A stretch of DNA of 64,000 nucleotides, from NCBI GenBank assembly GCA_937873715.1, contig CALMYJ010000004.1, positions 12,722 to 76,721 on the forward strand. Reading direction: 5' to 3'. The number at the start of each line of letters is the position of its first letter. Within the stretch, counting starts at the first letter, position 1. The notes under the pieces are model-generated. The model did not search any database, had not been told where the DNA came from, and saw only the letters and a list, made by a program, of their open reading frames with translations. Origin of the DNA: an uncultured Chitinophagaceae bacterium (GTDB taxonomy: Bacteria; Bacteroidota; Bacteroidia; Chitinophagales; Chitinophagaceae). Position numbers and translations under genes: made by a program. Positions 7,289-10,237 of this stretch are shown here, piece after piece.

Positions 7289-7837
7289 CTATTGCCAGAT
7301 ATTTTCCAGCAATACTTCAAATGTGCAGTGGTTATCGGTTGTAAAGCAAAAGGGCTGTTGTGCTGTTAGTGGTTGTAACTGGTATTTATTTTCCTTATCA
7401 AGTGCGTATATTTCAATGGTTTTGTTATCGGCATCAACCATAATGTAATACTGGATTTTAAAAGCCTGGTACAGGTAAAATTTATTGTTCCTGTCTTTCA
7501 TGGCTGTGGATGGAGAGAGTACTTCTACTACAACAGTAGCAGGAAAATCGAGGAAAGGCCTGGTGATTTCCCTGCATACCACAAGGGCATCCGGTTGCAA
7601 TATGGTGCTTTCGTTAATTTTTACATCAATAAAGTCATACACCTTACAATTGTTACAGCCGGATTTTTTTATAGCATCTTTTAATTCATATTTTATATTG
7701 CTGCTTACCCACTGATGCCCGGGTGCAGGTGCCGGGCTCATGGCATAGGGTATGCCTTCTATTAATTCCCAGCGACCCTCCCAGTGTTGCCACTCATCGT
7801 AAGTGTAATGGGGTAATATTTTTATTGCCGATGACAT
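7289..7837 (-). CDS. Uma2 family (PD-(D/E)xK) endonuclease-like protein
   Basis: RWELIEG...MSPAP, QPDALVVC, VEVLSPST...D...K..LY. Confidence 0.9.
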   Translation of the reverse strand: MSSAIKILPHYTYDEWQHWEGRWELIEGIPYAMSPAPAPGHQWVSSNIKYELKDAIKKSGCNNCKVYDFIDVKINESTILQPDALVVCREITRPFLDFPATVVVEVLSPSTAMKDRNNKFYLYQAFKIQYYIMVDADNKTIEIYALDKENKYQLQPLTAQQPFCFTTDNHCTFEVLLENIWQ

Positions 7838-7855
7838 TACTACAAATCTAACTAA

Positions 7856-8743
7856 TTAACCCAAACAAAGGAGCACCTGCCAGGCTGCATTTACATTTCC
7901 ACTATTCAGCAACTCTTTTGCATAAGTGTGCAGTTCCTTCTCCATCTCATTAGGATTGATAGAAAAATACTGGATGATATTCTTAAGTCGGTCATCATCA
8001 AAGGCAGGATCAATAACCGGCATTTCATGTACATTGGCTAACTGCCCCAGGTTGTTGCCGGTAAGTATTGTACTGTTTCGGATGGACGCCGGCAGCATAT
8101 CTATGCCAATACCCAGTTTGGTATTTGGTTTTTCCACTTTAAATAAATTGCTGCTGTTTACTTTGCAATACCAATCGCCGCCCAGCCTTGCAATATGCTG
8201 CAGTTTGGTTTGGTCAATCATGGTTTTATCTTCGTTGAGTACAGCTTCATTAATGTGCATCAGCAACACTTCTGCAATTACTAAGTTGCCGGCACCGCCT
8301 TCAGTACCCAATGGTTTTATTTCAATTACGTTACACTCCATTTGTACGGGGCTTTCTTTTACCCGGGGTGGCTGTATGAGCCGGGAGGGTTCTTTTGTAA
8401 AACCGGCCTTAATAAATTCGTCTATGCCTTTTGGATAGTCGCAACTGCTGAGGCTTACCTGTTGCACCATATTGTAATCGCAAATATTTACCACTACTTC
8501 AGGTACTTCCAAAATATTTTCGAGTGTATGTTTGGTTGTATTATCTCTTACCCTTCTTGCAGGGGAAAAAATAACGATTGGTGGATTAGAAGAAAAAAGA
8601 TTGAAGAAACTAAAGGGGGATAAATTTACGTTTCCATTTTTATCAATAGTGGATGCAAAACAAATTGGCCTTGGGGCAATAGCATGTTGCAGGATGTTTT
8701 GCCGTTCAGCAGGTTTGAGATCTTTTACATTTAGTGCAAGCAT
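7856..8743 (-). CDS. Flavin reductase family protein (DIM6/NTAB)
   Basis: APRPICFASTID, NLSPFSFFN, KHTLENI, PPRVKESPVQMEC, IARLGGDWY. Confidence 0.9.
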   Translation of the reverse strand: MLALNVKDLKPAERQNILQHAIAPRPICFASTIDKNGNVNLSPFSFFNLFSSNPPIVIFSPARRVRDNTTKHTLENILEVPEVVVNICDYNMVQQVSLSSCDYPKGIDEFIKAGFTKEPSRLIQPPRVKESPVQMECNVIEIKPLGTEGGAGNLVIAEVLLMHINEAVLNEDKTMIDQTKLQHIARLGGDWYCKVNSSNLFKVEKPNTKLGIGIDMLPASIRNSTILTGNNLGQLANVHEMPVIDPAFDDDRLKNIIQYFSINPNEMEKELHTYAKELLNSGNVNAAWQVLLCLG

Positions 8744-8752
8744 AAAAATGCA

Positions 8753-8777
8753 GTTATGGGTTGGCGGGTTACGGGTT
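8753..8777. repeat. Left arm of a 25-bp imperfect inverted repeat flanking the four-helix-bundle gene
   Basis: gttatgggttggcgggttacgggtt; 21/25 identical to the reverse complement of 9211-9235. Confidence 0.85.
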
Positions 8778-9170
8778 TTTGTTGTTTGTGGTTTTTGCAG
8801 TTTTATTCCTCATGAGATACCGCATCATACTGCCTATTTGTTTTGCCAGTGATCTTGAATAATCAATCATTTGTTCCACTTCATCTCCAGTTGTGTATTT
8901 TACCCTTTCTGAAAATAGCAGGCAATTTCTTACTTCGCCACAAGAGCCTTTAGAAATACGCAGAAATCTGTAAAAATCATTATTGTTGCTGTACTCAAAT
9001 CCTTCTGCAATATTATTTGAAATAGAAAGTGATGCTCTTTTAATTTGATCTTTAAATGAATAGTCTTTAGCAATTTTTAGATTCGCCTCGCTTAACTCAA
9101 AAACCATAACACCAAGATTCTGGGCCTTTTTCCAGATTTCCAATTCTTCAAATGATTGTATTGTTGCCAT
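8769..9170 (-). CDS. Four helix bundle protein (23S rRNA IVP / TIGR02436-like, Avd-like fold)
   Basis: FEELEIWKKA, DQIKRASLSISNNIAEGFE, FLRISKGSCGEV; AT-rich. Confidence 0.92.
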   Translation of the reverse strand: MATIQSFEELEIWKKAQNLGVMVFELSEANLKIAKDYSFKDQIKRASLSISNNIAEGFEYSNNNDFYRFLRISKGSCGEVRNCLLFSERVKYTTGDEVEQMIDYSRSLAKQIGSMMRYLMRNKTAKTTNNKNP

Positions 9171-9210
9171 AACTAGTACAATTTATAGTTAATGAAATCA
9201 AACATTAGTT

Positions 9211-9235
9211 AACTCATAACCCGTCAACCCGTAAC
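9211..9235. repeat. Right arm of the 25-bp imperfect inverted repeat
   Basis: aactcataacccgtcaacccgtaac; contains the stop codon of the FAH gene. Confidence 0.85.
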
Positions 9236-10237
9236 TTTCTTCAACAACAAAATCGAAAAATCACTATCCTCTTTAACAATTGTATTACTCAGTTTTCCTA
9301 ATCCGTCTATTTCCATATCCACCACATCGCCTTCCTGAAGCCATTGTTCTATATATTCCGGGTCATTTAGTTTACCTGTACCATTTAATTCTAAAAAACA
9401 ACCGGTGCCAACCGTGCCGCTGCCGATGATATCGCCGGGATAGAGGTTAACACCATAACTGCACCGCTCTATAATTTCAGCAAAAGTCCAGTCCATATCA
9501 CTAAGATTGCCTTCGCTAACGGGTATGCCATTTATGGCGCAGGTCATTTTCAGGTTCCAGGCTTTGCCGGTGTGGTTGGGTTTGCAGGGCACTTCGTATT
9601 GCTCTAATTCATCTAAAGTAACCAGCATGGGGCCAATGGCTGTTGCAAAATCTTTGCCTTTGGCGGGGCCGAGATTCAGCAGCATTTCTTCCTGTTGCAA
9701 TTGGCGGGCACTGATATCGTTCATAATCATCAACCCACCGATATATTGATCGGCTTCTGCAGCAGGAATATTTCTGCCGGGCCTGCAAATCACTATGGCT
9801 GCTTCCAGTTCAAAATCTAATTTTTTAAAATGGTCGGGCATGCACAGGATATCGCCGGGGCCCTGGATACTGTTGTGGTTAGTAAAATAAAAAATGGGGT
9901 ATTGGTCAAATTCCGGAATCATTGCTGCATTACGGTTTCGGCGTGCGGCAGCCACATGCTGCCTGAAAGCATAGCCATCCCGGCAACTGGTTGGGTGCGG
10001 CACGGGTGCCAAAAGCGTGGCGCTTTCAACATCAACAGGTGTGGCGGCCCTGCCCATCCCGTCTTTAAGCCGCTGTTCAGCAGCAAGAGCAAGCGGATAC
10101 ATATCATCCCAATAGTTTAAAAACATTGCCATACTTACCGGCAAATCAGGATGCAGGGCATCGGTATCGTACAGGTTACCATTAATGAGTATTGCAAGCT
10201 GGTCGTGCCCGTCTTTTATATAACTAACTAATTTCAT
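9224..10237 (-). CDS. Fumarylacetoacetate hydrolase family protein
   Basis: SCRDGYAFRQH, LDFELEAAIV, MNDISAR, AKGKDF, GDIIGSGT; start MKLVSY at 10237, TAcaTTTG promoter at 10255-10262. Confidence 0.92.
   Translation of the reverse strand: MKLVSYIKDGHDQLAILINGNLYDTDALHPDLPVSMAMFLNYWDDMYPLALAAEQRLKDGMGRAATPVDVESATLLAPVPHPTSCRDGYAFRQHVAAARRNRNAAMIPEFDQYPIFYFTNHNSIQGPGDILCMPDHFKKLDFELEAAIVICRPGRNIPAAEADQYIGGLMIMNDISARQLQQEEMLLNLGPAKGKDFATAIGPMLVTLDELEQYEVPCKPNHTGKAWNLKMTCAINGIPVSEGNLSDMDWTFAEIIERCSYGVNLYPGDIIGSGTVGTGCFLELNGTGKLNDPEYIEQWLQEGDVVDMEIDGLGKLSNTIVKEDSDFSILLLKKVTG

Follow-up and report, generated by a model that had tools for sequence, protein, structure and literature searches.

The window, by which we mean the whole stretch of 64,000 nucleotides analysed here, carries a cassette of the intervening sequence (IVS) type, in which one small gene is combined with short repeats, between a fumarylacetoacetate-hydrolase-family (FAH) gene and a flavin reductase-domain gene (FLR). 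The explanation that we prefer, to which we give an even chance of being right, is that the repeat arrays are putatively read by the protein encoded between them and that the cassette is not an active transposon today. According to this model, a 5' GTTRCGGG array, a short leader, a gene of the PF05635 family, and the same array in inverted orientation would make up a long-resident, dispensable module, derived from a single old insertion between the hydrolase and flavin reductase genes. The encoded protein, probably a pentamer, would bind the arrays as its cognate sites, and gene and repeats would belong together in the way that RAYT belongs with REPINs and Ssn with NTS repeats, with additional copies of the repeat possibly present elsewhere in the genome. 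The likeness of the two arms would be maintained at the DNA level by recombination between them. Once transcribed, the arms could also pair as a 26-bp stem of the type that is cut by RNase III in 23S rRNA intervening sequences; processing of the cassette transcript by RNase III is plausible, and the RNA stem and its possible cleavage are likely a consequence of the repeats and not their selected function.

All the features of the locus lie on the minus strand of the window and are described here in the sense direction. The upstream host gene, FAH (9224..10237), is followed by the 5' arm (9211..9236; AGTTACGGGTTGACGGGTTATGAGTT), which was located by inverted-repeat search and consists of about three GTTRCGGG-type units, one form of which is GTTACGGG. 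An AT-rich leader of 40 nt (9171..9210) reaches from this arm to the ATG of the four-helix-bundle gene (8769..9170; 133 aa), and the 3' arm (8752..8777; AACCCGTAACCCGCCAACCCATAACT), retrieved by the same search, is built from CCCGYAAC-type units. The downstream host gene, FLR (7856..8743), starts 8 nt beyond the 3' arm, and a Uma2-family (PF05685) gene (7289-7837) comes after it. Both host genes are co-oriented with the cassette and are treated as flanks outside it; since the cassette has the same orientation as the gene upstream, it is presumably expressed by read-through. The GC content of the cassette is 34%, compared to 46% in FAH and 41% in the flavin reductase gene.

The two arms, of 26 nt each, are complementary at 22 of 26 positions (85%) and stand 433 nt apart. 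Their inverted-repeat score is 32, against a null mean of 16.2 (sd 2.4); of 3000 positions drawn at random from this genome, 0.1% attained as much. For either strand, both the minimum-energy and the centroid structure predicted have the arms paired with each other. The original prediction had described arms of 25 nt that match at 21 positions and differ by transitions at the other four, together with a low GC content at 9001-9060 (15/60), and our recount agrees with both. It had also proposed that the arms supply the stop codons of both genes; this holds in the window, where the right arm contains the last FAH codons and the TGA (9224-9226) and the left arm contains the TAA of the four-helix-bundle gene (8769-8771), but the feature is not conserved among the orthologous cassettes.

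The assignment of the encoded protein to the four-helix-bundle family was corroborated by profile matches to PF05635 (99.6 bits, cut-off 33.8) and TIGR02436 (90.9 bits, cut-off 24), that is, the 23S rRNA IVS protein family, and its closest solved structure is the pentameric XCC0516 (PDB 2GSC, E 2e-10). This is the only open reading frame inside the cassette, which encodes neither a transposase nor a nuclease. Searches with PADLOC and Rfam matched nothing relevant.

The presence of arms is a general trait of the family, as had been anticipated for its other members. The source genome (3.86 Mb in 38 contigs, 100% complete) contains six PF05635 copies, none of them within rRNA. Each has an array of short tandem units on one side and the inverted array on the other, with a unit that differs between copies, and for four copies the arms exceed the 99.8th percentile of the null. 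Arms are also present in 27 of 29 copies sampled in the genus and, with a score of at least 30, at 57 of 76 PF05635 loci from many phyla, CPR lineages included. For these comparisons we used local inverted-repeat alignment, as the RNAduplex energy calculated over the whole 150-nt flanks allows huge loops and is undiscriminating. An unbiased scan of the genome for inverted repeats around 250-800 nt returned as its top families only PF05635, GxxExxY (PF13366), and the REP-associated transposases (RAYT).

Each lineage of the family has its own arm unit of 7-9 nt. The median pairing score of an arm is 38 with its own partner and 18 with the arms of other cassettes, with the exception of comparisons within orthologous groups, which shows, at the level of sequence, an arm unit that is specific to the cassette lineage. 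The six paralogues of the genome are only 13-45% identical to one another, and their arms are different. In the sense strand, the 5' arm is rich in G+T (T 42%, G 27%); the length of the leader varies from 4 to 150 nt in the relatives, and the upstream gene is co-oriented with the four-helix-bundle gene in 33 of 34 cases. As separate observations, two of the six copies (C21:23725-24036 and C18:37518-37832) have an in-frame stop, TGA and TAG respectively, and still keep strong arms, while one four-helix-bundle lineage with GTTTGG-type arms (e.g. L041, L042, L044, L048, L054, L055) presents open frames of 280-320 codons that far exceed the gene and are apparently stop-free through the arms and the neighbouring sequence.

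To reconstruct the history of the site, the FAH-FLR junctions of 93 species were compared, 88 of them from the genus and five from other families, which served as outgroups; FAH orthologues were detected in 109 of 121 congeneric genomes. An empty spacer of 0-60 nt is found in 33 species, all five outgroups included, in agreement with the earlier claim that the cassette was inserted. The window-type four-helix-bundle cassette occupies the junction in nine species and a repeat-bounded GxxExxY nuclease cassette in 29, and the other 22 have intermediate spacers or other contents, among them several remnants that lack an ORF and have cassette-type arms. A decay series is represented at the junction, from intact cassette to pseudogene, ORF-deleted form, and solo hairpin.

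Every four-helix-bundle homologue with at least 53% identity in the 121 congeneric genomes lies at the FAH-FLR junction, and the identity of the orthologues to the window copy declines in the order of the species tree. The dN/dS values of the orthologues range from 0.08 to 0.27 (median 0.17) at dS above 1, compared to 0.05 for FAH and 0.08 for FLR, and two of the nine orthologous cassettes are degraded. On the tree built from the flanks of the 93 taxa, at least 28 changes of junction state are needed, and the cassette-bearing tips are nearly all isolated (11 changes). The single junction, the tree-ordered identities, the dN/dS values, and the isolated tips show that the window cassette derives from one ancient insertion, and was then inherited vertically under purifying selection, with at least 10 later losses or replacements. 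Global alignment of filled and empty spacers gave nothing usable on insertion boundaries or target duplications, as the spacers are too diverged; no target-site duplication was seen at the arm ends, where spacer divergence is too high for a firm statement. We also considered an ancestor with both cassette types in tandem followed by differential loss, which has little support: footprints of both types occur at one locus only (L060).

When the junction, the flanks, and the contigs were compared, no sign of recent movement of the four-helix-bundle cassette was found. Almost without exception, relatives at or above 57% identity occupy the orthologous position, and the six contigs that encode an identical flavin reductase all carry the cassette. 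A scan of the flanks of the cassette-bearing species for tracts of higher similarity detected none, so homologous recombination has left no trace of allele exchange there. The original prediction had envisaged a cassette that is mobile at present, possibly retro-mobilised in trans. The first idea is not supported, in view of the positional orthologues in nine species and of the six contigs just mentioned, and neither is the second, in view of the genome itself, in which a search for PF00078 reverse transcriptases returned none while its positive controls matched.

Several known types of element were compared with the cassette and rejected. An insertion sequence or MITE would not account for it, given that there are no near-identical copies, no presence/absence variation among the contigs compared, and no transposase or nuclease. 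For a diversity-generating retroelement (DGR), in which the protein would have the role of Avd, there is no reverse transcriptase anywhere in the genome, and template and variable repeats are absent. By its location the cassette is not a 23S rRNA IVS, since both of its flanks are protein-coding and do not correspond to helix 25 or 45 of the rRNA. What the cassette has in common with the IVSs is a set of terminal inverted repeats that encloses the element together with an S23p-family ORF, and, with the RAYT/REPIN and Ssn/NTS types, a gene placed between inverted copies of its own repeat.

In other species, the FAH-FLR spacer hosts a different small-gene cassette of analogous design. Its gene has a nuclease fold (GxxExxY; PF13366/TIGR04256) and was found in 29 species (L003, L005, L008, L012, and 25 further loci), with either CGCAGAG-type inverted arrays or a pair of complete hairpins at its borders. 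At least two GxxExxY lineages are present at the junction, sharing 50-63% and 69-85% identity with the L003 copy, respectively, and even closely related species can differ in which of them they carry. The cassettes of L008 and L012 are 96.5% identical, compared to 82-83% for their flanking genes, an indication that the cassette has recently spread laterally to this site; pairwise nucleotide identities of cassette and flanks are inflated for divergent pairs, and this pair is the only one that stands out. The L012 copy has an in-frame stop.

A second junction, between an ICDH-like gene and IDH, holds another four-helix-bundle cassette of the source genome, referred to below as the sister cassette. 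None of the other genes inserted at this junction (PIN, Uma2, lipoproteins) is armed. In other species, these unarmed inserts include the Uma2-like genes (identified by eye, with no profile check) and PIN-like genes of L187 and L193; as a Uma2-family gene also follows the flavin reductase gene of the window, such spacers gather small accessory genes generally. In one species (L158, G133:C1), the four-helix-bundle ORF at the second junction runs opposite to the genes on either side, and the orientation of the arms is unchanged. This flip shows the outcome expected of recombination between inverted arms at the DNA level, and we infer from it that the arms recombine.

The gene of the sister cassette lies at C4:182941, and its heptamer, CTGGATR, forms the largest tandem-repeat family with a period of 6-10 nt in the genome. 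From a total of 18 loci of this family, 17 are single, unpaired, intergenic arrays in either orientation. Orphan arrays were also found for the units of three other resident cassettes, among them the window cassette, whose own unit occurs in this form at, e.g., C26:78120 and C27:146302. At the first of these sites (C26:78120-78273), two orphan arrays adjoin without an intervening ORF, one of GGGTTAC type, the window-cassette unit, and one of CCAGTAT type, which belongs to the C4:182941 cassette. Some abundant heptamer families of the genome have no resident four-helix-bundle gene, which counts against the explanation that we prefer.

The co-occurrence of gene and arrays was examined in the 121 congeners, with a genome considered to have arrays if it contains at least five matches to three tandem CTGGWTR units. 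Such arrays are present in 13 of the 17 genomes with the cognate sister gene and in 9 of the 104 without it, with a probability of about 1e-8 (Fisher-type, computed by hand and uncorrected for phylogeny), and at least six independent contrasts between sisters on the tree of the flanks point the same way. The exceptions are three genomes that have the gene and no arrays, in one of which the gene is a pseudogene, and nine that have arrays and no detected gene, several of which are incomplete assemblies; in G093, an array located at a contig end and adjoining IDH looks like a truncated cassette. For a second unit, GTTTGGB, the association is weak, with any match in 11 of 31 gene-bearing genomes and 9 of 90 others. 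Across these congeners, gene and dispersed repeat are coupled for the sister cassette; the co-occurrence is clean for this one paralogue only, and the unit pattern of the window cassette is too degenerate to judge.

These data bear on the other explanations of the cassette. In one of them, which we consider unlikely, the cassette is an intervening sequence of the mRNA, with a stem that is selected as RNA and cut by RNase III, so that the four-helix-bundle message is freed and the FAH and flavin reductase messages are uncoupled. Its parts do correspond to those of the Coxiella IVS, which has an S23p ORF, a 28-bp terminal stem cut mid-stem, and tandem heptamers (PMC4990558); the upstream gene is almost always co-oriented, and the stem appears in the predicted folds. 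The order of the unit variants is also mirrored between the arms: arm scores drop when it is permuted (mean z 1.1), and in 27 cassettes the actual order scores higher than its reverse, against 4 with the opposite result and 14 ties, in a sample that was picked by arm score and is therefore somewhat biased towards mirroring. The mirrored order indicates that the arms are true inverted repeats, and a hairpin under selection as RNA or DNA would be consistent with it as well. However, an RNA stem that was the selected feature would give more G-U than A-C mismatches in the sense strand, and no such excess was found (23:23 in the genus and 50:47 across phyla, 73 vs 70 in total), so nothing specifically favours the RNA stem. 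The orthologues keep the GTTRCGGG/CCCGYAAC unit, which is common to all nine cassettes despite saturated synonymous divergence, instead of drifting with compensatory changes; pairing alone needs no fixed unit. Furthermore, the predicted fold of the sense strand is no better than that of shuffled sequence (z -1.6), unpaired single arrays of the same units are common, and at L158 the ORF is flipped within its arms.

The absence of a wobble bias and the recombination of the arms would both suit a neutral relic, an old dispensable insertion with functionless arrays and with arms that persist only through mutual gene conversion, and so would the frequent loss and degradation of the cassette, with in-frame stops in two of the six genome copies and two of the nine orthologues degraded. 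We nevertheless think this improbable, because the protein has been under purifying selection over dS above 1, the unit is kept across species, the gene and arrays of the sister cassette co-occur, and genes of the family have this architecture in many phyla, which the other genes inserted at the second junction lack. We also consider it improbable that the cassette is a minimal mobile element that is still active, either a transposon or a homing cassette, with the arms as its terminal inverted repeats. The many state changes of the junction, the full decay series from intact cassette to solo hairpin, the lateral spread of the neighbouring GxxExxY cassette, and the presence of four-helix-bundle proteins about 60% identical at non-homologous junctions would be expected of such an element. 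Against it stand the single four-helix-bundle lineage at the site with its congruent phylogeny, the positional orthology of almost all the closer relatives, the divergence of the genome paralogues and their arms, the six contigs without strain polymorphism, and the lack of an encoded enzyme in a genome that has no reverse transcriptase. A gene-plus-repeat cassette whose arrays would be read by its own protein remains the explanation that we prefer.

Among known systems, the likeness to an IVS that had been suggested for the cassette is borne out by the 23S rRNA IVS of Coxiella burnetii, whose 28-bp terminal stem is cut mid-stem by RNase III and whose S23p ORF is accompanied by tandem heptamers in variable number (PMC4990558). 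The two share the protein family, a stem of about 26-28 bp around the ORF, a length of about 430-490 nt, arms of tandem 7-8-nt units in variable number, and the lack of an enzyme. They differ in that the window cassette sits in an operon spacer between protein-coding genes, whereas such IVSs lie in helix 25 or 45 of the 23S rRNA, and in that RNase III cuts the Coxiella IVS, whereas for the window cassette its action is a prediction. In addition, the ORF of the window cassette is clearly under purifying selection, while the authors of the Coxiella study argue that its S23p IVS ORF is decaying (PMC4990558).

A different likeness is that to the REPIN/RAYT and Ssn/NTS systems (PMC11893778), which also combine a small gene with flanking inverted short repeats, further copies of which are spread through the genome; likewise, genomes that have the sister-cassette gene tend to be those rich in its repeat. 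However, RAYT and Ssn are nucleases, while the four-helix-bundle protein has no catalytic motif, and REPINs and NTSs are discrete palindromes, while the cassette repeats are tandem arrays of 7-9-nt units whose orphans are single. The heptanucleotide repeat arrays reported by Rehm et al. in 2015 between co-directional genes (PMC4692102) resemble the cassette arrays in being tandem heptamers, variable in unit number, that lie after the stop and before the start codons of aligned genes. The abstract of that study names no associated gene family (PMC4692102), whereas the cassette arrays enclose a four-helix-bundle gene and are found together with it. The accessory protein Avd of the DGRs shares its fold family, a pentameric four-helix bundle, with the cassette protein, but a DGR has a reverse transcriptase, a template repeat, and a variable repeat, all three of which the cassette lacks. 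Our literature search found nothing that ties the PF05635 family to repeat-armed cassettes outside rRNA.

The locus provides a well-resolved natural history, with one ancient gain, purifying selection, and at least 10 losses or replacements, and evidence that the arm unit itself is conserved beyond pairing; the sister cassette adds the link between the presence and absence of gene and arrays over the 121 congeneric genomes. Ralph and McClelland reportedly described ORF-bearing 23S rRNA intervening sequences in Leptospira in 1993, and to our knowledge no function has been assigned to the S23p/IVS protein family in the roughly thirty years since such sequences were described. Heptanucleotide repeat arrays are likewise, as far as we know, unexplained in many bacterial genomes, in which an excess of heptamer SSRs is said to have been noted by Mrazek; comparable heptanucleotide arrays are the STRR of cyanobacteria. 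Taken together, our results reduce the question of the family's function to whether the protein binds its own repeat. A broader proposal, which we put forward tentatively and as possible rather than probable, is that PF05635 proteins are putative sequence-specific readers of tandem 7-9-nt arrays with lineage-matched units, and that proteins and arrays constitute one widespread system, housed in rRNA helices as well as at the boundaries between genes. Under this proposal, the IVSs of rRNA and a large part of the unexplained heptanucleotide-repeat excess would be two manifestations of it.

Outside the window, the genome also contains an 18-nt dispersed repeat, TTCCCAGCAACGTCTCTT, which occurs in both orientations, often about 168 nt apart. 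Its sites are at C4:2039-2949, C36:37555-41642, C13:204027-205950, and C19:67352-67687. This repeat flanks two IS200/RAYT-like genes of 196 aa and looks like an ordinary REP/RAYT family.
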